The position numbers were made by a program, and so were the translations under genes. Shown in pieces: positions 1,546 to 57,433 of a DNA stretch of 64,000 nt. Location: the IMG/VR virus record IMGVR_UViG_3300045988_059940, positions 38,650-102,649 of that record, one strand, 5' to 3'. Each line of letters begins with the position of its first letter. The stretch's first letter is position 1. The notes under the pieces were generated by a model. That model made no database searches. It saw nothing but the letters and a program-made list of their open reading frames with translations, and was not told the DNA's origin. Source of the DNA: a virus.

Positions 1546-2664
1546 TTAGTACATACCTGTCAACAGGTCTGTAACTGATTTTTCTTTACTTGTTGCACTC
1601 TGCGAAGTGTGATTTTTAGCAGAGTTTCTTAAAAGTTTTCTAAGTTTCTCAGCAGCAGACGTTTCGCCAGTCTTTTTTGCTGTTGAAACTACGGCATCAC
1701 CTTTCATAGTAAAGTAAGCAGATTCGATTAGGTTCTTTGCTAGATTAGAATCAAAGTCCTTCTGGTATTGTGTATAACCATCTTTATCTGTCTTGAAAAT
1801 ATAATCATACAAAGCTTTGCGGTCTGCTTTTGGGATAGCAATGCCACGAATTGAATCTAAACTATTAATACTATCTGTTACAGATTTCATAAATTGCTGT
1901 TGTTGAGCCTCTTGTTGTCTAGCCAACTCTGCCTGTTGCTTAGCATTTGCTTCTGCTTCATTCTTACGAATTTCTTTAAGCATCTCCAAAGCGTCTTCCG
2001 ACTCTTCGTATAATACGCCAGCATCTTCATATCTAGCAATCTTGTTATTAATCTGTTCATCTGTGTAGCCGTTGTGACGAAGCAAATCACCAATTACAGT
2101 ACGTTGATTGGATTCTGATTCCAAATCAATGTTATCAAGAGTAAGTGCTTGTTTTTGTACTTGATAGAAATCTTCAAACTTACCACCATTCTTTACAAAC
2201 TCATCTAACTTCTATATCCTATCATCTGCATACTGTGGAACTGAGTTCTACTGTACAACATCTGTAAGGTACTTAGTTAGACCATCTACTGTAAGTGGTC
2301 TTTCTTCATCACTAATGTCTGCTATATTCCAACCTAATGATTCAGCAACAGCATCGAACAAAACACCAACTTGTTGTGCCTCAGCAACATCTTCATCAGT
2401 TGGTTCATTTTCATCGACGTCTTGTGTATCTTCTTTATCATCAGATTGTTCTTTGTCAGCAGGCTCTGTGTCTGCTGCTTGATTTATATCATTATCTTCC
2501 TCATCAGGTTCATCGCCTTCTGGTTCTTTAATTTCTGTTACTTCGTCCTCAACCACAATATCTTCATCCAAGTTAGTAGCACTAGTATCTCCTTCTGAAT
2601 TACCGTACATGCTTAACAGGTCATCAAATGTGGATGGATTAGTTTCTTGTTTACGTTTTGCCAT
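1546..2664 (-). CDS. Acidic, coiled-coil head scaffolding-like protein (372 codons, 2 in-frame TAG)
   Basis: Track ORFs 2248..2664 and 1546..2124 share one frame. The only in-frame stops between them are TAG (2248-2250, 2212-2214), and the true stop is TAA at 1546-1548. It has a D/E-rich N-terminal half, a Q/A/E-rich helical segment, and sits just upstream of the capsid gene. Confidence 0.6.
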
Positions 2665-2713
2665 AATTATTAATTAATAATTAAATTATTTGTTTCGCTG
2701 TTTAATCAGCGTA

Positions 2714-3349
2714 TTACCATTCAGTATAATCATAAGGTCGCCTTAGAGTTGTAGGGACACCTTTTTTGGTTTTACCATACAACTAATCACGCATACCTTT
2801 CAATACTTTTTTCATATCTGGAACACCTTTTGTTTTGGCGTTCTTTGGATTTAGCTTCCATTTACTCATTGCAGCATCTATGCTCTTCATGTTAGCCATA
2901 CGATTACTATATGTGTCATATGAAGATTCATAGTATCCTGCGTCTTTTAGTATTCTGGCTGCTTTTCTTGGGTCTGTTTCGTCTAGTACATTATTGTACT
3001 TTTTATCCATTAAGAGATTGTCGCTAATGTAATAGTTAGCAAAGTCTTGTTCGTTTTTAAATTGTTTGTATTGATTAATATTTGGACTAACAATACCTCC
3101 ATAATTGTGTAGATTTCTAGCAATAGGAGATGTACCATTTAATGACTCCAATGCAGTTTGACGCATAGCATTATCTAGCCAATCTAGTTTTCCGACTTCT
3201 TGCAATCTGTCATATAATGCTGGTGCCATCTTTTCAACATATTCATCGTACTAGTCTTTGCCTCCTGCATAATTACGAATATCCCAATAGTTTTCACCAT
3301 TCTTCCAACGGTCAAATCTTTCTTGAAAAGACTTAGTATTATATCTCAT
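2714..3349 (-). CDS. Hypothetical head-module protein (211 codons, 2 in-frame TAG)
   Basis: ATG at 3349 lies 2 nt after the portal TGA. It is in frame with track ORF 2783..3229. TAG occurs at 3251-3253 and 2783-2785, and the terminal stop is TAA at 2714-2716. Confidence 0.6.
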
Positions 3350-3351
3350 AA

Positions 3352-5835
3352 TCAATTCTCCCCAGGAACTTTATTTTTTATAGCCACCTTAGCTTTAAGT
3401 CTTTCACGTTCAAGAGCAGCATCATCTTTTTGCTTTTGTAGCTCCATTTCATGGTTCATGCGCTTCTTTTCCAAGTCAATCTTAGCATCTTCTATTTCAC
3501 GCTTTTGACGTGCTTCATAGCGTTTCTAATAAGCATCTTGGTCAATCTTACGCAGCTGCGTAGCTTCTCTTGCCATCTCTAATGGGTCTGGAATACCGTT
3601 CATATCAATATCCTTATTCTCAGTACCACGATATGTACTAATCTCAGCAACTGCAATCTTAGTTTGATTATCAGCATCAATACGATAGCGTTCAAGGTCC
3701 ATTTCAGCCTCTTTTAGCATAAGTTCTTGTTGCTTAGCTTCATTCTACATTTGTTGTAATTGCATTTGAGCTTGTTGTTCTTGTTGTTGCTGCTGTTGTT
3801 GTAATTGCTCTTGACGAGTTTGCATATCTTGCAGTTTCTGCTTAATGATATTGAAGTTATCACTGGTAAGTAATTCCGCTGCTTCAAGTAAGCTAGCGCC
3901 ATTTTGCATAGCAGGTTGTATAAGCTGTTGAAGTTTTTGTATATTCTCCAAATCCTTAGAAGCATCACTTACAAATACATCCATATCTTCATAATAGAAC
4001 TTCTGTGATATATTTAAGAATGCCCTTTCACCATTATCGAATACATATGAAAGCTTTTGTTTTCCTGAGTCTTGCCAAGCACCTTTGGCTGTATTTAGCA
4101 GCATGTTTAATACTCTGCGCTTACATTGATTGTGTACCCAGAATAAAGGCTCTGTAATATGTGAAGATTGTACAACAGAACGCTCTACATTACCAACAAG
4201 TTCAGATGAACTAATTGCACCTTGACGTTGTTCTGTAATACCAGATATAGTACCTGCAAGCTGTTCAATCTTATCCATTAATTGAATATATTCAGATATG
4301 ACATTACTCATTGTTAAGTCAAGAGCTGTAATCTAATTGAACTGAGCAGGTTTTCCACCTTCTCTCCCTGGCACATTCCAACCTTCGTCATATGGATTAA
4401 TGAAGTTTACACCAACACTCGATAGATAGTGCATCCAACGTTCTGGTGTAATATTCATAGACTTAGGTATCTATGTAATGTCCATATTTACAACCTTACC
4501 TTTATCTCTTGCAATAGCCAACTCCAACCTATACCACAATACAATATACATGTATTGTAGAGGTTTAAGGATACTAACCAAAGACCTGGGCCTACTATTA
4601 GTATTGCTGTATACACAACCACAATATGGAAGCTTTTGTGAATTAGGATTATCAAGACTTACAAATTGATACTCTATTGGTTGTATACCGAAGTATAAGT
4701 CATTTCCTGCTTTATATCCTTCCCAGACCTCTATAATCCAGTCTGGTTCTACTGCTAGTTCTGTACCTACCTTCTTGTATGTCTCATCACATATATTGAT
4801 TTGTGGTTCACCATTTTCGTCCATCGTGGTCACATAGAATATCTTCTTGAAAGATTTCCAGCAACAGTGATATACATCTACATGGTGTTTAGAGTTCATG
4901 TCTCCACCGTCTGAAAGGTCAATAGAACGCATTCTAATGCCCTAGAACGTATCAACACCATCCTTCTCGATGTTATCTACACCAGGTGCACCAGAGAGCA
5001 TCTCATTGAGTTTATTTAGCTCTTTTTCACTAAGTTTATCATAATACCTATCATACACCTCTTGTATAGGTAATTTCATCTTACGAACACACCAAGAACC
5101 ATCTTCTATAAACTCTAAATCTGGACTCTTATCATAATTAAAGTATAAAGGATTTACACGTTCTGCATAAGGGTCACCATTTTGTACACCAACATAATAT
5201 ACTTCTGTACCACTAATTAGACCGTCTTTCCAACCTTTAATAAATTCGTTAGCTAAACCTAGTTTTTCTTTTAAGTACTCCAATGTGTGGTATGCTGTGT
5301 TTTCTATAATATCTTTGTAGTCCTTATCCATATATTTAGCAATAGCTTCTGGTGGCATTATCTCCCCAGATTGCAGTTGTTGTTCAAACTGCTACTGCTC
5401 TTCTGGACTCATTTTTGATTTTATTGATGCCATTATATACTACATCAACATATCCTTTTCTTTGTCTTGCAGCTCTGATACAGCATCCTGTGATGTACGT
5501 ATAACTCTAAAATTCATTGGTCGTTTTGTTTCTTCACCAATTAATAAGTCTATCTTTGGACGTACTATATTAAAGTCCTGTGGAGTAGCAGGAAATCCAT
5601 CATCTACCTTAAATGGATTGGTTATACGTTTAAAGTCGTCCTCATTGAACACACTATTGTATAAATCATAGTATGTTTGCATTTCACTAACATTACTACC
5701 TTTAACTAGTGCTGAATTACTTTTTGATTCGCCTATGATATAATCGACACACTTATGTTGCCAATCCTTATCTTTCTTTGTAAGTGGTAGTTTTTGTTGC
5801 GGAAACGAAGAAGTATGTAAATTACTATCTATCAT
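3352..5835 (-). CDS. Portal protein (827 codons, 7 in-frame TAG)
   Basis: Track ORFs 5440..5835, 4942..5358, 4471..4932, 3745..4311 and 3526..3720 are all in one frame. They are joined by TAG only (5440, 5392, 4942, 4471, 4333, 3745, 3526), with a terminal TGA at 3352-3354. The start lies 5 nt after the TerL stop, and the size and position are typical of a portal. Confidence 0.6.
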
Positions 5836-5839
5836 ATCG

Positions 5840-6480
5840 TTAAAGTGTAAATGTCGGTATGTCGTCCTATTCTGTCACATCGTTGTCCCAGTAATTATTA
5901 CTAAACAATGGCGTTTCAAATAGTTCGACTTGTTTGTTTTTATCTTTATGTGCTTGTGTTTTTATCTGATATAACTCTTCTCTATATATCATTACCATAC
6001 ACAAAGCAATTACTCTATCGACGTTTCTTATTCCGTCATTTTCAATCAGCTCCTCTAATAGAGGTTCGCTGTATATTCGTTCTAAGTTTAGTCGTCCTGG
6101 TTCATATTCATCCATTAACCATTCTAATATTAGACCTTCTCCATACGCTCGTATTGATTTGGTCATATGACAACCTTTTCTTCTTTGTACCTTAGAATCT
6201 TTAAATATCTCTGAGATTACTTTGTCTGGCTAATCAGCCAATAAGTAATCACAGTGTTTATTGGTGAAATAAGGATAAATTCCTTTACGTTCATTTTCAA
6301 ATAATAGTCTAGCATTATAGAACAACAATAACTTTCTTACGTTCTCATAATACTCTTCTGCTGTATCTGGTCTACCAGAATACTCAGCTACTATTACGTC
6401 ATTCCAAGCTTCACCTGCTTGCACGCGTTTAAATATAAATGTAGAGCCTAACGAATTAGTAAAGCTCTCATCGTGGTCAT
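5840..6480 (-). CDS. terL: Terminase large subunit, exon 2 (nuclease domain C-terminal part)
   Basis: This frame continues ...DHDESFTNSLGSTFIFKRVQAGEAWNDVIVAEYSGRPD... through TAG at 6230 and 5867 to TAA at 5840-5842. It joins exon 1 in frame once 6481-6719 is removed. Confidence 0.8.
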
Positions 6481-6719
6481 CAGTTTGTTATCGTACAGCT
6501 TTTTATCTGTACTTCTATATGTTTCCATATAGCCCAGCATACATTATTACTTTGATAGTATCGGGCACTCGTGGCAAGATTATATTTATTCACTTGCTAT
6601 GCGTTACGGTGACCTATAACCTTTCGTAATTTATAGGTTTACCACGGTGTTTCCACATATATTGATTATATAAGGTGTCCTCCGTATTTGCCCGATTTTA
6701 GACCCGCTGACTTACGCGT
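6481..6719 (-). other. Group I self-splicing intron (ORF-less, 239 nt) inside terL
   Basis: P1 pairs exon GACCCGU (6726-6720) with intron GCGGGUC (6707-6701), with a U.G wobble at the splice site. P10 pairs exon 2 UGAC (6479-6476) with GUCA (6711-6708). The intron ends in G (6481). P3 pairs AUCGGGCA (6696-6689) with UGCCCGAU (6567-6560). There is also a GAAA-capped hairpin at 6515-6532 and a hairpin at 6493-6512. Confidence 0.75.
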
Positions 6720-8136
6720 ACGGGTCGCACCCCCCTACATATAATCCATAAGGAGGGTCTTTAACTGGATATTCCCAGATTACAATAGAGCCATGAGGTT
6801 TATCATCTTTTTTTAAATGATATGTTGTAATATCACCAGACTTTTTCTCTGTTGCTACAACATTACCATTCTCAAACCTAAGGTCTACTATATGTTTCAT
6901 ATTCCTAAGCTTTTCGTTTGTTCTAATTCTGGTTAGTTGATTCATCAATAACTTTCTAGGGAATATGTTTTTTCCAAGTTCTAATACAGCTTCTTGTGGT
7001 TTCAAAGGACGTTCTGATACAAATCTGTCAATAGAAGTCTAACTGGCACCACCATCTTTAATAATGTTACGTTGTTTTATTAATTCTTCTATTGCTTTCT
7101 CTTTCATTGAGTTTCCATCTTTGTCCATATATATAGGGTTTCCATTTTCATCAGAACCCTCCATATTAGACCAAGCTGGAACAAAGAACCCACATTTTTT
7201 ATCGGTCTATCCGTCATCCCATATGTTTTCAAATCCTAATACATTAAATGCGTCTGGATTGTAGAATATGTTCTTCAAACCATCAAATGAGCCACCTTCT
7301 GTACCACCTGTTCCAAATAGACACAGAAGACCGAAAGCAACACCATCGTCAGTTTCCACAGCTGGTTGTTCAACACGCCAAGCTGTTTCTAGATTAGGAA
7401 ACTTACCACCTTCTTCAAATAGTACTAATTTACCACGAGTACCACGAAGACGTTCTGGGTCATTCTTCAATGTAATTCCAGTAATGCTTGATAAATAACC
7501 CTGTTCAGTCTATTTACCAAATTCATCGGTTACCTTAAAACCAGCAACACGTTCCATACGAGTACTTGTAAGACGCTGTTTAGACCAGTCTGTATGTTTA
7601 TCCACAAAGTCCATTATCTACCAGGCTTTGGTTAATATACCATCACCGATTAAGAATTTTTGTTCTGATGCTACTGCGAAGTTTTTAGAGCCTGGTATCA
7701 ATTCATAGTTGCGCACTAGCATTGATGCACCTTTAAAACTATATCCTCTCTGCCTACATTTTAATGTAGCCATATGTTTACCTTGCTCTTCCGCTTCTTC
7801 TATTGCATGATAGTAGTAGTAATCGTAATCCCAAAATCTAGGGAAACCAAATATACGCTCACGTCTTGTACGTTTTGCACCATATCTGTCTGTATACTCT
7901 ACTTCTTGCAGTTTCATAATTGGGCTATAATTCAAATAAAAGTAATGATAACCAGTTATAGCATCTCCATCGGGAGCTACATACCCATTTATACATCTGT
8001 CAGTCTCTCTGTCCCAATATGAATTATAGTCAGTAGTACCTCTTGGTGCAAGAGTATAACAACCATGTTCCTAAAAAAATATTGCGGCTTCACGGAATTT
8101 ATCTGAGTTTATCACTCTCTTATTAAAATCAACCAT
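6720..8136 (-). CDS. terL: Terminase large subunit, exon 1 (ATPase plus start of the nuclease domain)
   Basis: The gene starts at ATG 8136. Track ORFs 7618..7935, 7207..7470 and 6712..7005 are in one frame and are joined only by TAG (8071, 7618, 7510, 7207, 7039). The exon ends ...LYVGGCDPY. The two exons together are 2058 nt, or 685 aa. Confidence 0.8.
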
Positions 8137-8138
8137 AA

Positions 8139-8657
8139 TTAATTAGGTATTTCAAATCGACCTATAATACCACCACCTTTAACCTTACCAGATTCCATTT
8201 GTTCAGCTTTTGCTTGTTTCATTGCTATATCTAACGATTTAACAACAGAACTAACATCTTTTAATATTCTGGTTATTTTGAGCGCAGTATCTATGTCCAT
8301 GTTTCCTTCTGAATATTGATTCAGAGTTTCTATCAACCCTTCTGCTGCTGACTGTGAAGAAGCTAGCAATCTGGTACTAGGAGTCTATTGAAACTCCTAG
8401 AACCTTTTTGCTAATTCTTTTACAGATACAGAAGGAATATAATTCTCATCTTTAAATACATCTTTTGCTACAATTGAAGCCCTTTCCTTCTCTGGATACG
8501 CTTCATATGGCGTATTCCATTTATATAACCATACGATGTATTCTATTTCCTTCAACGCCTATTCTTTATCTTTGGCAGTATTGTAATGTTCCTTAAATGG
8601 CGGTACTGCTAAGTCTTCGGTGTTGAGTTTTATTTTACTTCCTTGTATATCAAACAT
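8139..8657 (-). CDS. Hypothetical protein upstream of terL (172 codons, 3 in-frame TAG); its position would fit a small terminase subunit
   Basis: The gene runs from ATG 8657 to TAA 8139-8141, with in-frame TAG at 8559, 8397 and 8385 and no TAA or TGA. It contains track ORF 8139..8369. Confidence 0.55.
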
Positions 8658-8668
8658 ATTTAATTATA

Positions 8669-9898
8669 TTATGCTACTACTGTACCATTGGCGTCAACCC
8701 ATTTGTTATCTTTACCAAACCAGAGCGGTTTATTCTTTACTGTATCAAAGAACATTTGACCAAGTACTGGATTTGCTGGTCTAGTTGCAGCAGGAGTTTG
8801 TGGCAATACATCTTGTACTTTCCTACCATCAGCCAAATACATATCTCCGTTCACCCTAATATCTAATGCATTACTTCTTACTGTATCAGACTATCCATTA
8901 CCTATTGTAAATAACGAAGACTATTTAGCTTGATTTGCATCTTTTACAATAGTACTATAAGAACCATCCCCAACTGTATTTGAAAACGCGCCGAATACAG
9001 CTGCATAATCTACATTAGATTTATTATTATTTCCAGTTATAAACTAAGCGTTTTTGTAAGACTTATTCTTTGCACCAGATATAAAAGACCCATTGGCGTT
9101 TGCGCCTATGTAGTTAGAAAATCCAAATGTTGCTGAATATTTTGTTTTTTCTGCAATATTCTATGTACCAACCGCAATACTATTTGTATAGTTTCCACGA
9201 TTCTCACCAGCAAGTATTGAACATTTACCATCATTGCTAGTTGTAAACATAGAAATAATGCCAGGTTTTGTTAATCCGCATTCTATTGCATTTGTGATTA
9301 TGACCTTATTGTCGGAATTAACATCAAATATTACTTTCTTTAATGTAGATTTTGAAAATTTTTCACCTTCTAGTTTTAATCCGTTGGCGTATTTTCCAAC
9401 AATCATATATACATCGTAAGACTTTAAATATGTATATGACGAACTTGTACTATCATACGCAGTGACCGCGATGTCACCATTTACAGACTTTATTTTAAAT
9501 ATATATGCATTTGCTATTATTAAATTCTGTTCACCTTTATTTAGAATGCCGAATCCGCAAAGTATAGATGTATTGCCCAAAGATGCAATATTATATCCAG
9601 AAATAATATCCGATGGACCAGAATATACATTGTGGTTTGACTTTATTGTAGTTAGTGTTATTGCTGTATTATTTATATTTTCTGTCTTATTGTCTGCGGA
9701 ATAAGATGGCGATATAACACTATCTACTAATGAATTAGATGTTCCACCAACAATATTTAAAGATTTTACTTCATTTGCATCCAATATTGTACCTGGTTCA
9801 AAACCATTTTTTATATCACCCAAAACTATCTATGGTGTAACGGCATACTTTAATCCTCCACCCTAAATAGTTGTACCATTTAATTTTACTGTTTCCAT
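8669..9898 (-). CDS. Tail fibre-like protein (409 codons, 6 in-frame TAG)
   Basis: ATG 9898 overlaps the TAA of the giant gene (TAATG). Track ORFs 9161..9823 and 8669..8854 share its frame. TAG occurs at 9863, 9830, 9161, 9044, 8921 and 8891. The C-terminus reads ...GQMFFDTVKNKPLWFGKDNKWVDANGTVVA. Confidence 0.7.
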
Positions 9899-12800
9899 TA
9901 ATTATAATAGTTTTTAGTTGTATTATTATCTAATAGAGTTTTTGGATTTTCATGTATAGCATTTGCACCATAGTTCATAAATACTTCTCCATACTCTAAT
10001 TTATTATGTCCAGCTGAAACATATCTATTTGGTGTAAATACCTATGCAAACTTAACCTTTCCTGGACTTACAAATAGTGTACTACCACAGAAAGCACCTC
10101 TTATATAAGATAATTGATTAAATCCGTAGAATACGCCACTTATCTATACTGGTTGAGATGAGTTGCCCGTAACATAATGACAATATGCAAATGCAAACCC
10201 TATGTCTCCTAATACAGACTTATTTATATCCTATATAGCAGAAAGATTAGTTCCTAGATACAATGTTATACCATTAAATGTATTTCTAAGAGTTGTTATA
10301 TTAGGACAGTATTTAAACAAGCTCTTTGGTATTGTGTAATTTGTAGTACCGTCTAATAAAGTATATGTAGACAAATATGTACAATTATAAAACATTCCAG
10401 TTATATTTTTTGTATAACCATTAAATGGTAACAATAATACTGGTGGAATACGTCCGAATAATCCGCCTCTATCTTGAACATTATAACCACATCCACAACC
10501 GTAAAATATATTCTATATCTCAGCATCACCATTACAATATCTAAATAAATCTGGTGCGCAACAATAGTTTAGTGTACCACTTAATATAGTATTATCTCTT
10601 GTGATTACAGAAGATACTAAGTTCTCATCGTGTTCATCATCTCCATCATGTACCCCAGTCTTCTTATGTACACCATCATAACTCCACATTATTGTGTTGT
10701 TTACAGTATCAGGTTGAGCTTTCTAGAATTTACCATTTATAAATAATATGTTGTATGGTTGATATGTATGGTTTTGAATTTCCTCTGGACTGTTATTAAC
10801 ATAAGGTTGTATATAATTGTACTAAAATAGATTATTAGTAAAGTTTATCTTTGAGTTTGGTTTCTTTGTAGTAATTGTAGTTTTAAAATATACAACACCT
10901 TCTGGGTTCTATATTACCGTACCATCTTTACTCCACTCTATTGTTTCGCCTGTCTATTTATATTTAAATATATCACCGTTCTTATGTGTTATTGTCACAG
11001 TTGTTGTTGAAACACCATTTGATGTAGATGTTTCTGATTCAATTTTACCATCAACTATTCCATAATATGTCTATGTAACATCCGTTTCACCGTGATATAA
11101 TAACTTATACGGTATATGACTTTTTATCCGCTCTTGATATGAAGAATTTGCAAACAAATAAGATACCTAATTTAATGAAGTACAATTTGCAAACGAGTTC
11201 CCAGTAAGCTTATAATCAAACTTTAAATCTGAGAACAAACCATATACATCGGTTAACTATGGATTGTTTATAAATAAATTACCAGGTAACTCTGGAATAG
11301 ATATTAGATTTTCTGCTGTTGAATTACTGAACAAATATCGTACAACACTTAACTTTTTACAATCTTTAAATATATTTTCTGGAAAACCTCCAACAATACG
11401 CTTTTTATAGCCATATCCAAACATTGTTATATTGTTGATAGTGCTTCTATTATTAAAATGCGTAAGGTTGGTAAAACCTTCAAATAACTGATTTGTAATT
11501 GGGAAATCAACAGATGTTGTACCTTTGCTTAAGCATGCAAATGCAGATATAACTGATACATGTTGTGGATGCTTGAACATATTCTTAAAAGATATGGTTC
11601 CTTTTCCATAACTTGAAATAAAAGCATCAGATACAGAATTTACTGGATTTTCAAAAGTTATTGTATCATAATCTATAAAACATGCGTTAAAGCAACTAGT
11701 ATAATTCTTTGTTAATAAATTCTTGGTAAACATTGTAAGATTTCCTCTATCAGCACCGCCAGTTTTTGATAATTCTAAATCTCCATTGGCGTATTTATTA
11801 TCAAAGTCTACAAATCCTGCATTGTTTACATCTTCAACGATGATTGAATTTTTATGATTAAAAAATCCAGTAAATGAATTTATTTTATAATTCTTAGATG
11901 AATGTCTAAACATAAATCTATCGAACATGCCGTGGAATCCATTTGCCCAACAATCTATATTTGTCAAACTATCTATAAGTGGACTAAACAGACCGTTGTC
12001 TTTCGTAACATTGTTTTCATCGTGTTCTGGTGAGAATATTCTAATGTTTTTATAACATCCCCATAGAATATCACGAATATCCCAAACGCCAGTTGCGAAA
12101 TGATACATATAACGATTTGGACTATTATCCACAGTAGCTGTACGTTCAAAGTTTACCTTTGACTAAAAGAACATACCACGTAAACTCTTCATCTGTCCTA
12201 AGTTTGATAATGCGTAGTATACATCAAATACTGTACATGCGGTTTCTCTAAACATATAATCACACACAGCAGTTCCAAATGTTATATTAGTTACACCATC
12301 ACCACTTTGCCACGGCATCTTCCAATTCAATGGAGGCTGTTTACCTTTACTATCTGGATTAGTTATTTCGTATGGCATAAGAACTCTACCGTCTGTGTCT
12401 ACAACAGATTTGTTCATAAATTTAACAGTAGATACATCTGAACCATGTAGTGAGAATTTATTCAGCAGATAAAACGTTCTTGTTGATGCAATTACTATAT
12501 TACCATATAAACGCTTTAAATTGGCACAGCCTTGGAATTGCTAAGTTAAAGTAATAGGTTTATCTTTATCATTAGCAAACTGTATGTATTCTACTGTACT
12601 ATTTTGGCTAATATTGAATGTTTGTAAACCTGTAAACTTACTAAGATTTAATATATCTTTGCTAGATGGACTTCCTTTTATTGCACTACCGTTCAAGTAT
12701 AAGTTTTCAACGTTAGCTTCATTACAGTTGTCGATAGTAACATAATTCAACTTAGAATTTGAAGATAAATCTATACTGGTAAGTGCTCGCAAATCAGATA

Positions 12801-15800
12801 GTGTAACATAATTTGTATTAGAATCACCAATCAATGCTTGGTTGTTTATTATTCTTACACTATCTAACCTAGGACAGTTTTCAATAGCAATTTGTGTTAA
12901 GTTTACATTATTTGCTATTGTTAAATTAGTAAGATTTTTACAGTTTATAATCTATACCTTTTGTAAGTTATTATAACCAGACAAGTCCAAAGATGTATAA
13001 CCATCGCAATCTTCTATATAAACCGTCTATAAATTGTTACATCCTGTCAAGTCAATCTGTTTTAGATATGGTTGATGTCTCAAATCCAACTCATTTATGT
13101 TAGACCTTTGTATCTATAATGTTTTCAAAGGTACGTTGGTCGGTATGTATATGTTTGTAATACATTTACTACCAGATATATTTATATCAGTAAGTTTAGT
13201 AAACTTTGTAAATGCGTGTGGAGTTTTGCTGTTTTGTTCTATATCTAAAACAAATGTTTTCGTGGGGTCTAAGCACTGTGTATTAGAAAAGTCCATAGTT
13301 CTAATCTAAGACTGTATGTCTTTTCTAAATACATCTAATTTAAAGTCTGGGCTAAAATGTTTGTTGCCACTCAAATCTATTTCATATAATGCTGGGAATC
13401 CTAATGCATCTATTGTATTTTGTGCTTCTGTTGCAGCTAATATAGATACCTACATACTTGATAACTTATTGTTAGCATTACCAAGCTTTATGAAGTTATT
13501 TGAATTAGTAATGTTCCAGTTATATGGACCACCATATTTAATGTTGCCAACGTTTACAAACGTTTCTTTATTGTCCTATAAGAAATAGAAAGCGGTAACT
13601 GTATCGCCAATACTTATCTTTGATATTATTGGACAGTTTGTTGTTACTGGGAATACCTGTTGATTTGTACCCATTATACTGTTACCAGTAGATACATCTG
13701 CATTTGATTTAAATGTAATAGATTGCTGTTGCTTTGCAGTATCGCGCCACTTAAATAAGCTATCTAAGAATATAGTATGCTTCTTCAACCAATTTCTACT
13801 ATGTGCAATCTTACGACCATGTAGCTTAGTCATATCTTTTGTATTACTAATTTGGTCGTTAGTAAATTGTAATAGATATTTTAGCTTATAGTCATAATTA
13901 AATATCAACGAACCACAATCTGATGTTTGCTTATCAAAGTATTCATCAATGAAATAATTCGTAAATGTATCATATCCTTTTGACTTAGCTAAATCTTCTG
14001 TAAACTTTCTAAAATCATACCAATATTTTGTATATAGTGAATTTACATCTTCTCCAAATACTGCCCTACTAAACGATGTGTCTAATGACAACCACAGTTT
14101 GTTTGTATTTGCAGACACTGTTTTTCTAGATATAGCTTCGTCGAAATTAAATGTTTCTGATACATACTACAATCCATTTTGTGCATTTGCAACAGTACCC
14201 TTGTTTGTTAGATACTTAATCCACACATCTGGTGTAATAGACAACTAACCTTGGTTATCACCGCTCATAGAACAGTCTAGGTCATAAAAGTCAGTAAGGT
14301 ATTTGTTTCCATCCCAAGACCTATATGTTGAGTTCTTTCCAAAGTTATCAACTAATCCAAAGAAGTTTGCAATGATGAAGTATTTCATTGCACTTTCTAC
14401 ATTGAATCCTAGGTTCTCAGCACTTACTGCATTGGAATCAATTTCAATATCTTGTTTCTAACCAGTCTTATAATAGTTATTAAAGTTATCAACTGAGTAT
14501 AAATCATAAGACCCTGCAATATAGTTTTTAGAAATCGTACCAATAGAGTCACTACTATAACAGCGTTCTATTGGGAAGCGCATTATGTTCTTTACGAACT
14601 GTACAAATCCTGGGTAATCGCTAACCTATTTATTTGATGGGTATCTAACATCAAACCTACGATTTAAGATTTCTCTATCACTTTGCCAGAAATCACCATT
14701 TGAAGTATTTATACCTTCTGGAAGTGTATCTTTTACATTTGCAAAATCACTTAGAGATACAGTATCTTTAATTTCTATCCAGTTTGCATTTTGTGTATCT
14801 TCCTCTACGTATTTTACTTTATCTTTATAGAATGGGAATGTAGTTACCTCAAATACATTATTACCTTCATCTACGATTTTATTTACTTTCTTAAATCCTA
14901 AGTTTCTATATGCGTTACGACCTAGGTTAAATGAATATATTCCAAGTGGCGTAGTAGATACTTTATTTTGCGCATCTGTGTAGAATTTCATTATTAAGAA
15001 TACAGGGAAACCTTCTACTGTATGTTTAAGTGTAGCTGTCTTTTGCTGCTTCTTAACATAATCAGACTCATATACATTGTCTACTGCTTTTTTATCGAAT
15101 GGGAAATATTCAGATGTACCAATTCTACCAAGTGCACTATTTATAAACGAACCAATAGAAGCATTACTAGCATGAGAGCTGTCTACAACGTCAGCTTTAA
15201 GTGTATATGTCTGTTCAGGAAACCATGTAGATTTTGGTACAAATGCTGTTGTGTCAGGTACAGTTATGTTTACGTTCTTAACTGCGTCTGCTAGCGTTGA
15301 AGTACCTTGTAATTCAATTGTGACACCGTTAATTGTTTTAATACTAGTGTCAATACCTGTCTTATCTTGTTTGTTTATTCCAACTGGGTCCCAGTATTGT
15401 ATAACTTTATTTGTAGTAGCAGTTAGAGTTGTAGATGATGCTGATTGCTGTTTTACAAACTAATCAAATGTCCAAGATGAGTCGTTACTAACATCAATCA
15501 ATACAATAGGTATGCCAATAAATGCAGCCTATTCTTGTATGCTTTTACTATTTAATCTACCATTAGAATCTAGTAAGAAGTCTACATTATAGCCAGTATG
15601 CTCGTTGTATAGGTATGATTTAATACTACCATCAGATTTTCTTTCACAGAAGTTCTTTTTTAATTCTACCTATATTCTTGCATAGTTTGGAGTTCCATTT
15701 ACATAATCAGTTGACACAATATTATTTATACTATCAACCATTATGTCGAACTCATTAAGTGCATATGTATATATATTCATGTTATATATATCTACATCAC

Positions 15801-17697
15801 ACTTATTATATATTACAGACTTTCCATTCTTAATATATTGTCTAGCTCCTAAATATATAGTATCACCAAATACAATTGGAGTTGTTAGATTTCTAATAGC
15901 TGACAATACTCCGTCCAAATACACCTTGACTACATATGATACACTATCCACATATCCAGTTGCTATTTGTGTACGTGTCGTCTACTTCTTACACGTAATT
16001 GTAATATCATTTTCAGTACTATCTTCAAGCTATATTACATTTTCATTATTAATATAAATGTTATGTACATCAATGGATATACCATTAATCATAGCTCCAA
16101 GATTCTAGTCTGCAACAGAAGTATTACCAGAGAATAATATTGTTCTCTCATCATCTGGGTGATAGTCTGCTTTATAATGTATATGAATTGTAAATTCGTC
16201 ACCGCTTGACGATATGATGTCATTAAACTTATATTTTCTAGATTCTAGTGAAATGTCATCAAATTTGGCATATGCACCATTACTAATCCTATAATACTAT
16301 ACAGCAGAATCTAAAATAGATACTCTTGACCTAATATTACTTTCCATTGTTCGCAACACAGAACCTATTTGGAATTGTGATTTATAGTTTGTATTTGTAA
16401 ATTCAAACGTATCATCACCAACGTTCTATGCTCTGGCATGCAATGAGAATATTCTGTTGTTTATAATATTAGATGTGTCTGATAAATATGTAACTGATGA
16501 TTTTATAAACTTAATGTAATATGTCGTAGTTGCTGTCTTCTGTCCAGAAGTAACGGTCACCTTCAACGGTACTGTCTTATTTGCAACAGTCCACGGTTTA
16601 TTATTTACAGATATATAATCACTAACCTACCTACCAAATACACCGTCAGCGTCTTGTCTAACAAGATTTCCATCTATTTCTATATTATACTTATAAGACG
16701 TGTACTGACTTACATATGCTGTAAATACAACATTAACAGAACCATCCATACTAACCTCTGTTGGCTGTCCTTGTACTTTGCTCATTACAGCAGACGATAT
16801 TAGAATTTCTGATGACACCACTGTCATTGTAGATTTAATCGTCTTCTTTACAGATTGTGTTGTTTTGTTCTGTAAAGTACATTCTACAACATAACTATCT
16901 ATGTAATCTTCTGTCTATCCTATCAAGTCACTAAGTACAATAGATTTTAAGAACTAGTCGGTTGTAGCAATTACTAAGTCATACTCTTTTGTAATTGTAT
17001 GTAATCTACCTATGAGCTTAATTGTCAACTTGTAGTTACCGACAACACCTACACTATAATACAACTTTAAAAAAGAAGTATTTAAGCTAGTTAGTGTACT
17101 TTGTATATCTTCACATGACATTTCTATGTTGTTGTCAATAATAACACCAGACCACTGTGCAGAGCCGTATATACCCTTTTCGTCATCTTCATAAGATGCA
17201 GATATATTCAGCTTTCCAGTATGATTTGATAATTGACTTACAACAGTATCATATGGTACAAACAGTATAGGATTTGACGCATTAGCTACTGAACTATATA
17301 TCTATGTACTACCTATACGAGCTATTACATTCCACCCTTTATTGTATTTTACACTTAAATCTGACAGCTTTATCTGTAAACCTCCCTAGTCCATTATTAT
17401 TTGTGAACCAGTTGGTTTATCATTTACAGTAATAGTTGTATTTACTTCTGTATCACCAGGTGTTGCTCCTCCACCTCCACTACCAGAGCCTCCACCTCCA
17501 TGTAGTGCGAGCCATGATATATTTCCTTGTGCGACAGTTAAATCATCTTTTAATCTTTCCATCGCAGTATCAACAGAGATTATATTCTCTCCGTCTTTTA
17601 AGAACTTAGGGTTTGTTGTACCGATACCTTTTGCATCATTACTTGCTACAATATCCCAAGTTCTTTTTGATTCATTATATTTCTTTATGTTATTCAT
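9898..17697 (-). CDS. Giant multidomain tail / receptor-binding protein (2,599 codons, 36 in-frame TAG) with LRR-like repeats
   Basis: Ten track fragments (17386..17697 down to 10231..10434) share one frame. I read every in-frame triplet between them and found 36 TAG and no TAA or TGA before TAA 9898-9900. After the N-terminal domain there is a GGGGSGSGGGG linker. Repeats of the form LxxLDLSGxxNLxxVxIxNC occur around 12.5-13.3 kb. Confidence 0.8.
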
Positions 17698-17708
17698 TGT
17701 AAGAAAGA

Positions 17709-20700
17709 TTATAAGGTGATTGTATATTTGTCCTATGTGGTTATATTATATGCAGATAAATCTTGCGGTAATGATTCTTTCAATGTCATTGCTACTGCTG
17801 ATAGACTATCTAATTGTTTATTCATGTCATACTTTGCAGTATTCTTATCTTCATTCACCGTCCAAACACCTTTTATTTGTTTAGCTGTAATATCTATTTT
17901 ACTATCTGACATTTCATACACTACATACATGGGGTAATGTTGCTTAACATTTTCCTTCGGTGTAACTTCACTAGTCTTAGCTTTAAAATATGCTAACAAC
18001 CAAGGTATTTGATAATCTGGCCCAGACGGCTGTTCTTTGTTTGAAACTAACTTCCAACCAGTTGCCTATGACATAACATATGTTGGTGCATTGATTTTAT
18101 CTACTATTTCAAATCTTGCAAATTGTAACCAATCATTATTTATATCTGATGCCTTTGTTACCTAAATTACTGGTTTTCTAGAAACACCTTCTGTTACTTC
18201 GCCCATAAACTCAACGGCTGTATTTTGCCTGTTATTCTATATATAATCAGCTGGTGCATCATATATTGGTTTACTTATACTATAAGTATGTTTGTGACCA
18301 CCAAATACTAATCGTATACCATACTTCTTAAACAATCTAGAAAACCTATATGTACCATTGTTATTTAGTGTATTTAAGTGTGAACCACTACGTCCTTTTA
18401 CACCATTCATGAAGTCCCAGGTTACGATTGTAAATGGCATTTCATGCATATAACAAAGTGTATTTTTACAGTCAGTTGGATTCTCTACACCATAGTATAT
18501 CTATAAATCTTTCTTTAACCAATCTTCAATTTTAGCGTTCATTGTTTTAGCAAAGGTAGCATCGCCAGAGTTTGTACTAATGTTCCAATCATCTGTATAC
18601 ACTTTACTAGTAGCTACCGCATTTTCTGAATTAATAGATATGAAATGGAATTTCCCATAATTAAACGAATATGTAGAATACATTAAACATTTCTTCCCAT
18701 TCCATGTTAATTCATATTCATTGTTTGGGTCTAGCTCAAATGTAAAGTATTTCAATACATTTACATGGTTATATTTAGATGTAACATCATCACCGTCTGT
18801 TAGTTGTGTAGCATTATGTCCACACAAGTCATTGTTACCAACAGTAAACATTTCAGTTTTATCACCTAAGAACTCGTCTAGTGCTTGATAGTAATCTAAC
18901 CATTCATTCTCCCTATTACCGTTCTAAGTAATATCTCCTGTATTTATCAAGAAGTCTGCGTCTTGTTGGTCTTGTGCTAACATCTTGGCCGATTTACGCC
19001 AAGCCTGGTAATCTATCCAACTGAACCCTTGTTGGTCAGTTTCTTGTACGAATTTAAAAGTTGTTACCTCTGAGTTGTCTTTGACCGTTAACGTCTTAAT
19101 TGTACTATAATATGACTCGTCAAAGTCTCTTCCTATGCGATATTCATATACGCCAGCTTCAAACTATTCACTTAATACTACCTTATGAGTAGTAACCATT
19201 GTACCGCGTACCGTCTTCCAGCGTAATCTTTCATAATGGTCTATGAACTTATTTATAACAGCTGAGTTAGAAGAATCATCTCTTGTTATAGAATATTGTT
19301 TCTTCCATTCAGTTTGTCCTTTTTTACGATATTCTATAAACTCATCGTAATATCCGACAGATACCCAATTGAAGCATCTAGAAGCCTTTTTGTGATTTGC
19401 TGTATCGGAAGTGGCTTGAATACCAAATGTACACCTTATGCAGTTTGGTTTATTCTTATTGAACTCTGTTTTATCTGTAAAGAAGTTTTTACCCTCCCAT
19501 GATGCTTTTGGTGTATATTTCTCTTTCATCTCATCTAGATAGTAATACTGTATACTATTACCTATCTTTGTAGTTTGACGTTTAAGATTTACATATATCC
19601 ATAAGCTTGTAGACTTTCTAGCACCATATGCTTTATTACCCTATTTGGCTGGTTCTAACATAAACCTACGTATAAATAGCGCATCATTCCAAGAATCTCC
19701 TGGCTCTAATAAGAATGTAGTTCCACCTTCACTTAACGAGCCTACACCAAATCCACAGCTATCTATATATCCTTTATTTACCTTTTGTTTATTCCAAGGT
19801 GAAGCTAACTCTCCAACAGCATATAGATTACCATTGGAATCGTACACCCAGTTATCTGTTGGACTACCAACACACAAATAGAAGCTAGAACAAGTTTGGC
19901 TAAACTTTATTAGTTCACCATTTGAGAACCACTCTTGGTCATATGTATTAACATCAATGAATTGAGAGTTATAATCATTACATTTAGCTCCTCGTATTAA
20001 ATATGTAGAGCCTGCTTTTATTACACCACTTAGCGGTAATGTGTGCCACTTGTATCCGTTTGTACCTCCACCATATGGTGTACCATCTGTATAGAGTAGA
20101 TATATACCATTTAAGTTAATATCTTCTGTTGAACCATTTGCAAGCTCTACAAAGTTGTGTGAACACATACAGTCTTCTGAACCTTGTCCACCGCAATATA
20201 CTTCATTTATACAGAGTAGATGATTTATAAATACACCCCAAGACCCATCTGGGTTACCTATACCAGTTGGAGTTTGTATATTCTTATGTATCATAAACTC
20301 GCCAGACTTACTTACTTCTACTTTGTATGTAGATTCACCGTCTGTAAAGTTTAGATACCTTAGTTTCGTAGCATATAAATCTTCTACACTAATTCCACCA
20401 CCAGAACCTCCTGAGCCACCATCTGTTGTGCCTACAAGATTGAACTTCCCATCTTTATATAGAACTAAACGTTTTTTATCTGTATAGAATAGTATTTCAC
20501 CGTCTATTAGGTTTTGTCTATTCTTATTGAAATTAGCTACTGTATCCATCTTTATAGATACATGATTTACAGTAGGTTCTATTCCTTCTGTATTAGGTTT
20601 ATCTTTAACTATACCTGGAATATCTTTTGATTCCTTTGGTTTAAGAGGGTCTGCTGAACGCATGATAATTTCCCTAGCACTAGAATGTGCATCACCAGCT

Positions 20701-21380
20701 ACTACACCGTTGAGTATTATTTTATTTACAACACTCATGTTTTTGTATATTTCAGCGAGTGCTGCTTTTATCTTCTTTAACTCATCAGCATCATTCTATG
20801 TTAGATTTGTAGTATCACGAGTGTCTATCCACAACTTGCTTTTATCCTCTGGTGCAATTTGTCCAACATATATCTACGAACTTGATATTTCTGATAAACC
20901 TGTTGATAACAGACGATATAATACGCCTGTTGTTTTATTATATATTATTTTTGTAGATGCTTCTTTGTAATCATCAGATGACCCATAATTATCAGTGGAT
21001 GCCCACTGTGCATATGCAAAACCTGCCTTTATTGCTAGGAATTTTTTATGTGCGTCACTGTATACTATTTTATCGTAAGTATTTGCTACGTTTACATCAT
21101 CGATAGTATATATTGTCGTATCTATTGAATCTATTGTTAATACGTCAGACTTACGACCATTCTGCTTTATTTTTTTTAATATTTCATCAATGTTTATATC
21201 TGGCTATTGTGCCTATAAACGCTCTACAATACGTTTAATGGAGTTGGCATCAAATATATCCCCATCTTCAAACTAATGGTTATTGATATATTCGCCACGC
21301 TATAACATGATTACTTTTGGAGTCCTAGGTATATCTATGTTATCAATAATCCTAGTACCAAATAGTTTTGTTTTTTTCAT
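17709..21380 (-). CDS. Tail-associated protein with an internal calcineurin-like metallophosphoesterase domain (1,223 codons, 14 in-frame TAG)
   Basis: Translation from ATG 21380 to TAA 17709-17711 is a single frame. Track ORFs 19641..20738, 19164..19529, 18501..18851, 18237..18449 and 17733..17999 are joined by TAG only. Motifs are FVQETDQQG, GDIT(TAG)NG, GNND and GGHKH, with a GGSGGSGGG linker. Confidence 0.7.
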
Positions 21381-21411: not shown

Positions 21412-21440
21412 AAAGGGGACCCCTTATCGGGACCCCCTTT
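21412..21440 (-). terminator. GC-rich hairpin downstream of dut
   Basis: AAAGGGG..CCC-loop-GGG..CCCCTTT forms a symmetric stem. It is the only strongly G+C-rich stretch in this spacer. Confidence 0.4.
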
Positions 21441-21495: not shown

Positions 21496-22056
21496 TCACT
21501 CGCTTACTTCAGTGTCTTCCGTCGACACCACCGCTTCTGGCTCAAATTCTTGCTCAGCTTGTACGGCATCGTTTGTGCTGCTAGCTTCCTGTGCAGAATT
21601 ATTATTCAGTGCGCTCAATTTCTCATCGCTGGAACCATATCCACCTTCCCCGCGTTCTGTTTCGCTAAGTTCCGTTACTTCTGTTACTGTAACTTCTGGA
21701 ATCGGCATTACAATCAATTGTACAAAACGTTCCCCAATTTGGTATAATGCAGGAGCGCCGTTTGTTGTAATGTGCATCTTTGCTGTTACTTCTCCCCTGT
21801 ATCCAGCGTCTATTACGCCAACACAGTTTGTCATAAACATTGATTTCTTAGCAATACTAGAACGAGGAAAGAGATAGCCTACGTAACCTTCTGGAATTTC
21901 TATCGCTAGACCAGAATGATATACTACAACCGTTTGACCAGCATCGTTTGGTTCTAATGTAATATCAACCGCTGTAAGGTCAAGTCCTGCGTCATTCTTA
22001 TGTGCGCGTATAGGCATTATAGCCTTGTCATTCAATCTCTTAATTTTTAGTTCCAT
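21496..22056 (-). CDS. dut: dUTP pyrophosphatase (trimeric dUTPase) with an acidic C-terminal extension
   Basis: Motifs AGLDL, PRSS, GVIDAGYRGE and RGEGGYGSS are present. The stop is TGA and there is no internal TAG. Confidence 0.9.
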   Translation of the reverse strand: MELKIKRLNDKAIMPIRAHKNDAGLDLTAVDITLEPNDAGQTVVVYHSGLAIEIPEGYVGYLFPRSSIAKKSMFMTNCVGVIDAGYRGEVTAKMHITTNGAPALYQIGERFVQLIVMPIPEVTVTEVTELSETERGEGGYGSSDEKLSALNNNSAQEASSTNDAVQAEQEFEPEAVVSTEDTEVSE

Positions 22057-22082
22057 GTATTATTTTATATTAATTTATATAG

Positions 22083-22170
22083 ACGCCCCAGTAGGAGTCG
22101 AACCTACCCTGTCACCTTCAGAAGATACGCGGTTTTAGAGACCGCCAGTGCCACCGTACACCATAGGGCG
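22083..22170 (-). tRNA. Amber suppressor tRNA, anticodon CUA, class II (long variable arm)
   Basis: Hand fold: CGCCCTA / TG / GTG..CAC D-arm / GCGGT-CTCTAAA-ACCGC / 21-nt variable arm / GTAGG-TTCGACT-CCTAC / TGGGGCG / T73. The anticodon loop is C-U-CUA-A-A. Confidence 0.85.
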
Positions 22171-22327
22171 TTATGACGCTGTTTAAAGACTCACACGTCA
22201 ACGTCTATGAGAAATCGTATTTTTACGTACTAATGGTGAATAATAGCACGGTGCGGAGGTCGTTATAGTCAGACCGCCATGACTTTGTAAAATTATGCCT
22301 AAACAAAATAAAAATATTTTATTATAG

Positions 22328-22400
22328 TTGCGGAGGATGGATTCGAACCACCGACCTCACAGGTTATGAGCCTGGCTATCTACCTCTGATATACTCCGCG
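22328..22400 (-). tRNA. tRNA-Met (CAU), initiator-like
   Basis: The sequence is CGCGGAG...CTCATAA...GGTGG-TTCGAAT-CCATC-CTCCGCA-A. It has a C1.A72 mismatch and resembles E. coli tRNA-fMet in its acceptor ends. Confidence 0.75.
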
Positions 22401-25883: not shown

Positions 25884-26439
25884 CAAAATCAAAGTATTTT
25901 TTACATCTGATTTACACTTTAACCACAAAAATATAATTACATTTTGCGGTAGACCATATACCAACGTAGAGGAAATGAATGCTGCTTTAATTAGCAATTG
26001 GAATACAGTTGTACCAGAAGATGGTGTAGTATTTGTATTAGGAGATATAGGGTTTTGTTCAGTTACGGTTTTAAAAGAGTTGTTCAACAAGATGAACGGA
26101 ACTAAGTATCTTATTCTCGGCAACCATGATTATTCTATGCAAACACAACTTGAAAAAGCTGGAATATTTAAAGAAATATATAATCTCAAACAGATTAAGG
26201 TTGATACACAAAATATAGTTCTTTGCCACTATCCAATGTTATGTTTTAATGGAGACCATTATGGTGCATGGCAGTTATTTGGGCACATACACAGTGGTCC
26301 AGGGATAATAACAAATGATACCATAAAAGCACAAACATTGCGTCCAACACAATATGATGTAGGTGTAGATAATAATAACTATACACCAATTAGTTTTGAG
26401 CAATTACAAACAATAATAACCAATAAAAGTAGAGTATGA
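25870..26439 (+). CDS. Calcineurin-like metallophosphoesterase
   Basis: Motifs SDLHFNH, GDIGF, GNHD and GHIH are present. Confidence 0.8.
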   Translation: MEKFDKIKVFFTSDLHFNHKNIITFCGRPYTNVEEMNAALISNWNTVVPEDGVVFVLGDIGFCSVTVLKELFNKMNGTKYLILGNHDYSMQTQLEKAGIFKEIYNLKQIKVDTQNIVLCHYPMLCFNGDHYGAWQLFGHIHSGPGIITNDTIKAQTLRPTQYDVGVDNNNYTPISFEQLQTIITNKSRV

Positions 26440-56989: not shown

Positions 56990-57433
56990 CAACATGCAGT
57001 CTGGTGTAATTAACCCAAGTTAGAATGTGTACAATTCGATGCGGGTGGAGTATGAAAAGAAAATAAGTAGAAGTAGAAAAACTCGCGAATAAGTATATTT
57101 TAAAAGTTTTCAAAGTAATATCTTGCAGACCATCTATGAGGATGGAGGTTGGAGATAACAAGTTTATCTACTGCATTATGGGGGTATATGGCTTTGATTT
57201 TAGACGGAAGATATGTAAGCATGTAGAGCTTGTAACAGCTCTTAAATATAGTTACAATAAAATTAACCGACAACGTTATTTTGTCAATTGCAGCTTAATT
57301 GAATAATAGTAAATTTGGCGCACATTACACAGAACCACTCAAAGTAACTGTATATGTAATGTAATTATTTGGGATTCAAAATGTTTATTCATAATTTTAA
57401 ACATGTAGAAAGCATATAATAACTCTGAAAGAC

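Follow-up and report, generated by a model that had tools for sequence, protein, structure and literature searches.

A 64,000-nucleotide (nt) stretch of the IMG/VR virus record IMGVR_UViG_3300045988_059940 (positions 38,650 to 102,649, hereafter the window) derives from a crAss-like phage (Crassvirales) whose nearest relatives are Bohxovirus, cr131_1, cr272_1 and cr113_1, and encodes at 22083..22170, on the minus strand, a tRNA with anticodon CUA. In addition to the arm that would decode UAG, this tRNA(CUA) has an extra arm with a 7-nt loop that resembles the anticodon loop of tRNA-Gln. We tend to favour the reading that it is a working amber suppressor, which inserts glutamine at the TAG codons of the phage late genes and uses the extra arm to present the cognate anticodon for charging. 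A wider proposal, that stop-reassigning phages have repeatedly evolved suppressors with two loops, a mutated one that decodes and an intact cognate one (CUG or UUG for Gln, CCA for Trp) that is read by the host synthetase, is in our judgement evenly poised between right and wrong.

A suppressor tRNA with a second anticodon-like loop

ARAGORN reports six tRNAs in the window, a single one of which has the anticodon CUA (CTA, 22082-22170, minus strand). The original prediction, made from the letters of the window, had given the gene as 22083-22170, which is exactly the span from C1 to the discriminator base U73 (88 nt, CCA not encoded), and left its strand unstated; its CUA anticodon, long extra arm, first three acceptor pairs (C1-G72, G2-C71 and C3-G70) and U73 were all borne out by ARAGORN and by script. 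Homologues and a consensus fold also support the gene.

Read from its 5′ end on the minus strand, the tRNA begins with the acceptor strand CGCCCUA (22164..22170), which forms seven of seven pairs with 22084-22090, both by hand and by script, and all seven pairs covary in relatives. U8 and G9 follow, and then the D-arm GUGU-ACGGUG-GCAC (22148..22161), which contains G10, has a small loop of class I type and is closed by the three Watson-Crick pairs described originally plus a U-G pair. Two connector bases separate it from the decoding anticodon arm GCGGU-CUCUAAA-ACCGC (22129..22145), assigned by ARAGORN and by script, as was its UAG-reading anticodon CUA (22136..22138). The 21-nt variable region that comes next holds the extra, or putative pseudo-anticodon, arm (22113..22127), with the stem UAUC/GGUG (four pairs: C-G, U-G, A-U and U-G) and the 7-nt loop UUCUGAA, whose CUG (22119..22121), a glutamine anticodon, has U-U before it and A-A after it like a true anticodon loop. 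The linker ACAGG from the extra arm to the T-stem (22108..22112) has the 5-nt length of a class I variable loop, the T-arm GUAGG-UUCGACU-CCUAC (22091..22107) was found by script and by RNAalifold, and the gene ends with the acceptor strand UGGGGCG and U73 (22083..22090); one close relative (L035) shares this U73 and encodes a CCA after it.

Folded alone, the sequence is not significantly stable (z = -0.71), and the tRNA lies below the gathering score of the general Rfam tRNA model; its top Rfam match is tRNA-Sec (RF01852), at 42.9 bits against a cut-off of 47. The cloverleaf is supported by homologues, since RNAalifold, applied to 18 diverse homologues, folds the acceptor, anticodon and T stems together with that of the extra arm, shows compensatory changes in 13 of 19 pairs and thus predicts the extra hairpin independently. 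Besides the sub-threshold score, the tRNA differs from tRNA-Sec in having CUA instead of UCA, a 7-bp acceptor and a 4-bp rather than 6-bp D-stem. An 8-bp, Sec-like acceptor can be drawn if the base before C1 pairs with N73 (A-U in the window, U-A in cr113_1), and was ruled out by the A73-CCA of cr113_1 and the U73-CCA of L035, which are encoded straight after the 7-bp stem. ARAGORN labels the gene tRNA-Pyl from its anticodon alone; a tRNA-Pyl has a variable loop of 3 nt, a tiny D-loop that lacks GG and an atypical T-loop, and the 21-nt variable region, the GG in the D-loop and the standard T-loop UUCGACU led us to reject that assignment.

The original prediction had read the long arm as the architecture of Ser, Leu and bacterial Tyr tRNAs, and here we part from it. 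True Ser (64) and Leu (58) arms from the same contigs mostly have 4-nt loops and 3′ linkers of 1-2 nt, whereas the extra arms of the tRNA(CUA) and its relatives have an anticodon-like 7-nt loop and a 3′ linker of 5-7 nt (5 nt in the window). A long hairpin variable arm is the class II feature that the window tRNA does show; the arm geometry and body of Ser or Leu tRNAs are absent, as are G73 and A73, given U73. By its sequence, the tRNA resembles one of class I into which a hairpin has been inserted just behind the anticodon stem.

Conservation of the extra loop and a TGA-reading counterpart

A scan of IMG/VR with a pattern made of the anticodon-arm core of the window tRNA, a long spacer of any sequence and a T-loop gave 70 loci. 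Nearly all of these long-arm tRNAs have a short hairpin in the spacer with a 7-nt loop of the form pyrimidine-U-(CUG or UUG)-A-purine, typically CUCUGAA, CUUUGAA or, as in the window, UUCUGAA. Real tRNA-Gln loops in the same contigs read CUUUGAC and CUCUGAC, and the loop of E. coli tRNA-Gln(CUG), UUCUGAU, is identical to the window extra loop at 6 of 7 positions. Across 31 extracted arms (two of them later found to be spurious), U35 and G36 are invariant, U33 occurs in 27 and A37 in 28, and position 34 holds C in 25 and U in 6, so that precisely the two glutamine anticodons occur. The two pairs that close the loop are always formed in the extracted arms, by four or five pair types. When 29 distinct arms were curated, with at least two flanking pairs required of each and hence a bias on the inner pairs, 81.9% of stem cells were paired and covariation reached 0.62 against 0.21 for shuffled alignments (0 of 500 reach the observed value); sliding the partner column abolishes this signal.

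The loop is specific to the anticodon of the tRNA that bears it. A glutamine motif, defined as Y-U-(CUG/UUG)-A in the extra loop, was found in 42 of 46 distinct long-arm CUA sequences, against 1 of 38 for tRNA-Ser, 0 of 41 for tRNA-Leu, 1 of 11 for tRNA-Tyr and 1 of 38 for long-arm UCA tRNAs, while a tryptophan motif, U-CCA-A, was found in 24 of those 38 UCA tRNAs and in 0 long-arm CUA, 0 Ser, 2 Leu and 1 Tyr tRNAs. Among the CUA tRNAs with the motif, the acceptor strand comes in 27 different forms.

The UCA tRNAs come from the same IMG/VR search run with anticodon UCA, which returned 61 loci and 38 distinct long-arm tRNAs; those with a complete second anticodon arm and the tryptophan loop (for example L100, L104 and L133) are labelled ‘SeC’ by ARAGORN. 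Seventeen extracted UCA arms are full copies of an anticodon arm, with 5 bp and a 7-nt loop, and every one of them has U33, C34, C35 and A36; pairs form in 97.6% of stem cells, and covariation is 1.12 against 0.30 in shuffled alignments. Their commonest extra loops are GUCCAAA and CUCCAAA, the latter being a genuine tRNA-Trp loop. Other UCA matches are mostly ordinary selC-like tRNAs that lack the motif. The hairpin is inserted at different points in the two families, with a 5′ linker of 4-6 nt in the UCA family and 1 nt in the CUA family, which suggests that the two designs arose by convergence and not from shared ancestry.

Among bacterial and archaeal genomes, tRNAs with the motif were found on phage-like contigs, rich in tRNA genes, that had been binned with metagenome-assembled genomes (MAGs) of Bacillota, Mollicutes, Erysipelotrichaceae and Nanosyncoccus. 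Six long-arm CUA tRNAs without the motif were found in MAGs of Dehalococcoidia, Alphaproteobacteria, Acidobacteriaceae, Thermoguttaceae and Vicinamibacterales; some, in MAGs of Dehalococcoidia, Alphaproteobacteria and Acidobacteria, have clearly Ser- or Leu-like bodies, and insertion of Ser or Leu at a stop codon is a possible function of these motif-free tRNAs.

Evidence for glutamine at TAG

The anticodon CUA in the 7-nt loop of a cloverleaf, reading frames restored by TAG and glutamine at TAG in homologues, the features expected of an amber suppressor, were all found. Read-through of TAG raises open reading frame (ORF) coverage from 53 kb to 81 kb and lets one ORF of 2616 codons emerge. To assign the residue, late proteins with X at each TAG were aligned by tblastn to the DNA of seven related genomes, and the likelihood of each residue was calculated from a substitution matrix built on those same alignments. 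Conserved TAG sites align to genuine CAA or CAG codons of crAss-like relatives (portal sites 468, 514 and 710; sites 175, 211 and 368 of the terminase large subunit, TerL; site 86 of the ORF at 5840-6487), and the log-likelihood for the window TAG codons is -514.6 for Gln, the next best residues being Thr, Lys and Ala, all at about -625 (best -625.3). The complete genome of cr113_1 (98,557 bp) contains a long-arm homologue of the tRNA(CUA), labelled tRNA-Gln in RefSeq, as its sole tRNA gene, together with 11 TAG codons in its portal gene and 73 in gp38, and the same test gave -734 for Gln, -828 for Ala, -861 for Ser and -1110 for Trp. Neither Flavobacterium phage Fpv2 nor a PhiCrAss001-like phage gave a signal for any residue; their TAG sites lie at variable positions.

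Glutamine also dominates the TAG columns of a protein alignment of 120 portal homologues. We set that alignment aside as circular, because near-identical full-length matches show that gene callers had already translated TAG as Q in the database entries. The codon-level tests thus point with high probability to glutamine at TAG in the late genes, strongly favoured over all other residues, and it is likewise highly probable that the tRNA(CUA) of the window delivers it. The original prediction had judged that the tRNA does not fit a TAG-to-Gln assignment and had left the amino acid undecided; the tabulation of TAG-aligned columns that it suggested, carried out on codons for portal and TerL, returns Gln and not Ser, Leu or Tyr. 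Metaproteomics has found TAG read as Gln in crAss-like phages (PMC9523058), and a screen in an E. coli cell-free system found that 28 of 29 phage tRNA-CUA insert Gln and 13 of 13 tRNA-UCA insert Trp (PMC12636597).

Descent and identity elements of the tRNA

A region-by-region comparison led us to reject an origin by duplication of a tRNA-Ser, which the original prediction had drawn from the likeness to the tRNA-Ser(UGA) of the window. That likeness is real in the anticodon arm (13 of 17 positions) and the T-arm (16 of 17), where it is generic; the 5′ half of the tRNA(CUA) is identical to the tRNA-Ser(UGA) at 12 of 27 positions, compared with 21 of 27 for the short tRNA(CUA) of cr60_1 and 20 of 26 for the long-arm tRNA of locus L006. 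The decoding arm resembles the one in E. coli tRNA-Trp, from which that of the window differs at four positions and that of some relatives only by C35U. The syntenic slot beside the dUTPase or TerL gene in cr60_1, cr272_1 and cr131_1 is occupied by a class I tRNA(CUA) of 73-75 nt, annotated tRNA-Gln, that lacks the extra arm. Descent of the window tRNA thus appears, on these comparisons, to be of Gln type and not of Ser type.

The closest relative at NCBI, Bohxovirus ‘endotrachealis’ (PV686213.1), was searched for the long-arm tRNA without success; its syntenic gene is a short tRNA(CUA) split within its anticodon loop into halves at about 1813-1850 and 2823-2865. The insert of about 970 nt holds a 301-codon ORF (1874-2779) and is probably an intron with a homing endonuclease. 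The split tRNA was missed by ARAGORN, by Rfam and by the annotation of the record.

Identity elements for the glutaminyl-tRNA synthetase (GlnRS) of E. coli comprise a weak U1-A72 pair, G73, G2-C71, G3-C70, G10 and an anticodon YUG with A37. The window tRNA has G2-C71 and G10; it has C1-G72 and U73 in place of the weak first pair and G73, and C-G, not G-C, at 3-70. YUG with A37 is absent from the decoding arm (CUA) and present in the extra arm (UUCUGAA). Among 38 motif-bearing relatives, G-C never occurs at 1-72, where the pair is often weak or a mismatch; the base at N73 is G in 21 of them, A in 10 and U in 7. The original prediction was right that the acceptor end follows no E. coli-type rule for Ser, Leu or Tyr, and the same holds for Gln (C1-G72, C3-G70, U73); we agree with it that an unusual charging route may be involved. 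The extra arm may matter especially in this tRNA because the acceptor end lacks E. coli-type GlnRS determinants.

A proposed route of charging

On this proposal the molecule would have the body of a class I tRNA of Gln/Trp type, recognisable by a first base other than G, by G2-C71 and G10, by its small D-loop and by 5 nt left of the variable loop. A 15-nt hairpin would have been added directly behind the anticodon stem, its loop copying that of tRNA-Gln (pyrimidine-32, U33, CUG, A37). The decoding arm would pair its CUA with UAG on the ribosome, and the extra arm would show an intact CUG to the host GlnRS or, where GlnRS is absent, to a non-discriminating GluRS followed by GatCAB. Pfam detected neither a synthetase nor a release factor nor an anticodon-binding domain in window ORFs of at least 150 amino acids (aa) and 27 smaller ORFs; with no synthetase encoded in the window, a host enzyme must charge the tRNA. 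The extra arm would restore the identity signal lost by the change of G36 to A, and keep TrpRS and other synthetases off.

Most synthetases, GlnRS and TrpRS included, recognise their tRNAs mainly by the anticodon. The sequence patterns of the two families would best be explained if selection has favoured recognition by a factor reading CUG, UUG or CCA, and the cognate synthetases are the obvious readers because GlnRS and TrpRS both draw much of their specificity from the anticodon. From the pattern of sequences we infer both that the extra arm is read by a synthetase and how the enzyme would reach it.

Several observations weigh against this reading. In the sister phages cr60_1, cr272_1 and cr131_1, TAG is read by a short tRNA(CUA) of class I, and short tRNAs with the same anticodon arm occur at 92 IMG/VR loci, compared with 70 for the long-arm form; the extra arm is therefore not indispensable, since short tRNAs suffice in sister phages and are equally common. 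Two CUA tRNAs stand 3-4 nt apart at six loci and at two others, a 75-78-nt class I Gln-like tRNA (U1 unpaired, G73) beside a 91-nt long-arm tRNA with a CUG loop, and such tandems of short and long forms are hard to account for if both simply insert Gln. The scan fixed the sequence of the anticodon arm, so that the sample is a subset, and the motif counts are of distinct sequences and not of independent lineages. The stem of the extra arm varies from 2 to 5 bp across relatives, which makes a rigid geometry unlikely. Monomeric GlnRS binds the inner, D-arm face of its tRNA and variable arms project from the other face, so that simultaneous docking is not obvious; the hairpin might lie alongside the anticodon stem, or the two arms might swap, and we regard both as possibilities. 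E. coli GlnRS charges CUA tRNAs unaided, as in supE and su+7. Charging by GlnRS without help has also been reported for CUA tRNAs in PMC12636597.

Alternative explanations

The extra arm could be a relic of the duplication or insertion of an anticodon arm, with Gln charging proceeding through C34, U35 and the acceptor end only and the hairpin being tolerated or aiding folding or stability. GlnRS sits on the face opposite the variable region, as this account would have it, and the short CUA tRNAs of sister phages are as frequent as the long ones. The real and extra arms can be much alike (CUCUAAA and CUCUGAA in cr113_1), as duplication would produce, and E. coli extract charges most phage tRNA-CUA with Gln (PMC12636597). 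A relic should decay, yet the loop is near-invariant over 27 acceptor stems while its stem changes compensatorily, position 34 varies only from C to U, that is, to the other Gln anticodon, and the UCA family has arrived at the same design with another insertion point and another cognate anticodon. We therefore think a relic unlikely, although it deserves serious consideration. Because the conserved element is a complete look-alike of an anticodon loop, any reader of anticodon loops could in principle bind it, and phage tRNAs do interact with anticodon-nuclease defences; the extra arm might serve as a decoy or sponge for an anticodon nuclease in phage defence, as a handle for enzymes that modify tRNA-Gln or tRNA-Trp, or as the ligand of some phage protein. 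The pseudo-anticodon, however, always matches the reassigned amino acid (Gln for CUA, Trp for UCA), which charging by the synthetase predicts and for which a decoy gives no evident reason, and Pfam finds in the window no phage partner with a known RNA-binding or anticodon-binding domain. Another reader of this kind is, in our view, rather improbable.

A two-headed tRNA, in which either arm stacks under the D-arm so that UAG or CAG is decoded, or which is charged in a CUG-arm conformer and then switches, would fit the canonical junctions at both ends (1-2 nt from the D-stem for the CUA arm, 5 nt to the T-stem for the CUG arm) and the UCA family, where both arms are full anticodon arms of 5 bp and 7 nt. 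We consider it very improbable: the extra stem of the CUA family is mostly 2-4 bp, too short and variable for decoding, and we know of no natural precedent. Hardly any probability attaches to a true class II substrate of SerRS, LeuRS or TyrRS, with TAG as Ser, Leu or Tyr, or to its weaker variant, a second, class I tRNA-Gln(CUA) outside the window. The length of the extra arm and the resemblance of the anticodon and T arms to tRNA-Ser(UGA) speak for the former, and about 35 kb of the genome lies beyond the window, where a second tRNA could be encoded. Against them, the log-likelihoods of Ser, Leu and Tyr fall far under that of Gln, the 5′ half has little in common with tRNA-Ser, the arm geometry and U73 fit none of the three classes, and the complete genome of cr113_1 has no other tRNA and its TAG is still Gln. 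Both forms of this alternative are largely refuted.

Genomic setting

The tRNA(CUA) and its upstream neighbour tRNA-Met(CAU) (22327..22400, minus strand; ARAGORN and Rfam) stand at the head of the late block, and the dUTPase gene (21496..22056, minus strand), which has no TAG, lies directly downstream; the dUTPase neighbourhood also houses the suppressor tRNA in cr113_1, cr272_1 and cr131_1. Right after the dUTPase gene, a strong, GC-rich, terminator-like hairpin of 12 pairs followed by a T-run (21412..21440, minus strand) separates the tRNA and dUTPase genes from the TAG-bearing late genes, which suggests that tRNA-Met, tRNA(CUA) and dUTPase are transcribed together as a separate unit, before the late genes.

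The client genes of the suppressor occupy the late, structural block (1546..21380), on the same strand as the tRNA, with about 75-80 in-frame TAG codons: 7 in portal (3352-5835), 5 in TerL (6712-8136), 36 in an ORF of 2600 aa (9898-17697) and 14 in one of 1224 aa (17709-21380), all on the minus strand. The major capsid gene has none. The large terminase frame is interrupted, in that its N-terminal part stops at a TAA (ORF 6712-8142) and C-terminal homology resumes in the ORF at 5840-6487. About 220 nt of non-coding sequence lie between the two parts (6488-6711, minus strand) and could be an intron; Rfam families gave no match in this gap. A 67-nt stretch at 6484-6550 has 87% identity to a Bacillus phage.

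Outside the late block, ORF and Pfam scans found on the plus strand a ThyX-like gene of the early region (26436-27236), in which 2 TAGs have to be read through for full length, and a sigma-70-family factor encoded by the same phage (41396-41959). The early region also contains, on the plus strand, a RAGATH-12 RNA (RF03149, 33774-33855; 89 bits against a cut-off of 75) and a full-length transfer-messenger RNA (tmRNA) at 57180-57461 (RF00023, 95.4 bits against a cut-off of 47), which ARAGORN did not report. A tmRNA is annotated in cr60_1 too, and its presence in a stop-reassigning phage may bear on how ribosomes are rescued while the code is being switched.

Significance and comparison with known systems

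A tRNA whose anticodon is altered to match a stop codon is normally charged less well or less accurately, because the anticodon is the main identity signal for most synthetases, and this is a central obstacle both in natural codon reassignment and in the engineering of genetic codes. If the proposed role of the extra arm is correct, these phages have a modular solution, in which a spare cognate anticodon is kept elsewhere in the tRNA and decoding is uncoupled from recognition for charging. It would explain how TAG-as-Gln and TGA-as-Trp can be imposed on standard-code hosts by phages that bring no synthetases, and would provide a sequence signature from which the amino acid of a reassigned stop could be predicted from the tRNA alone. 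A suppressor has been detected in only about 40% of recoded phages, and the two-loop design would explain why standard tRNA finders miss or mislabel such genes (as ‘Pyl’ or ‘SeC’, or below the Rfam threshold). Such tRNAs would also be natural templates for orthogonal or reprogrammed tRNAs.

Glutamine amber suppressors of phages are known; the extra arm, apparently functional, is previously undescribed as far as we can tell, since no description of natural pseudo-anticodon arms was found in the full-text literature, coverage of which is incomplete (most subscription journals lie outside it), so that an earlier description is possible. The tRNA(CUA) genes of crAss-like phages with genetic code 15 share with the window the anticodon, the position at the head of the late genes by dUTPase and TerL, and TAG as Gln. 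Those of the sister phages are class I tRNAs of 73-75 nt, to which the window tRNA adds a 15-nt hairpin with a Gln loop, as well as C1-G72 and U73.

The E. coli suppressors supE (tRNA-Gln with CUA) and su+7, the C35U change in tRNA-Trp (CCA to CUA) that is charged with Gln, are likewise one-base changes of a Gln or Trp anticodon that yield a UAG reader charged by GlnRS. They have no extra arm and their charging is weaker or ambiguous, whereas the phage tRNA keeps a second, unmutated loop. With the class II tRNAs for Ser, Leu and bacterial Tyr, the window tRNA has in common a variable region of more than 10 nt that forms a hairpin between the anticodon and T arms; it differs in its sequence-conserved 7-nt loop, its 3′ linker of 5-7 nt, its class I D-arm and its probable specificity for Gln. 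A long extra arm is also found in tRNA-Sec and in allo-tRNAs, tRNA-Sec being the top Rfam match, but the window tRNA has a 7/5 arrangement of acceptor and T stems and not 8/5 or 9/3, a 4-bp D-stem and CUA, and it scores below the cut-off.

Hairpins that copy an anticodon loop for a synthetase outside the anticodon position are known from mRNAs, where mimics of the anticodon arm, such as the E. coli thrS operator, bind their synthetase and regulate the translation of its mRNA; the phage mimic differs in that it sits inside a tRNA and would serve the identity of aminoacylation. An engineered precedent also exists, in which a pseudo-anticodon in the variable arm raised charging by a HisRS with an additional anticodon-binding domain (Mukai 2020, PMC7590224). 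There, as proposed here, a variable-arm hairpin mimics the cognate anticodon arm and recruits the anticodon-binding domain of the synthetase to an amber suppressor. The engineered system is synthetic and relies on allo-tRNA scaffolds and a HisRS fusion, whereas the phage design is natural and widespread and would need to work with unmodified host enzymes.

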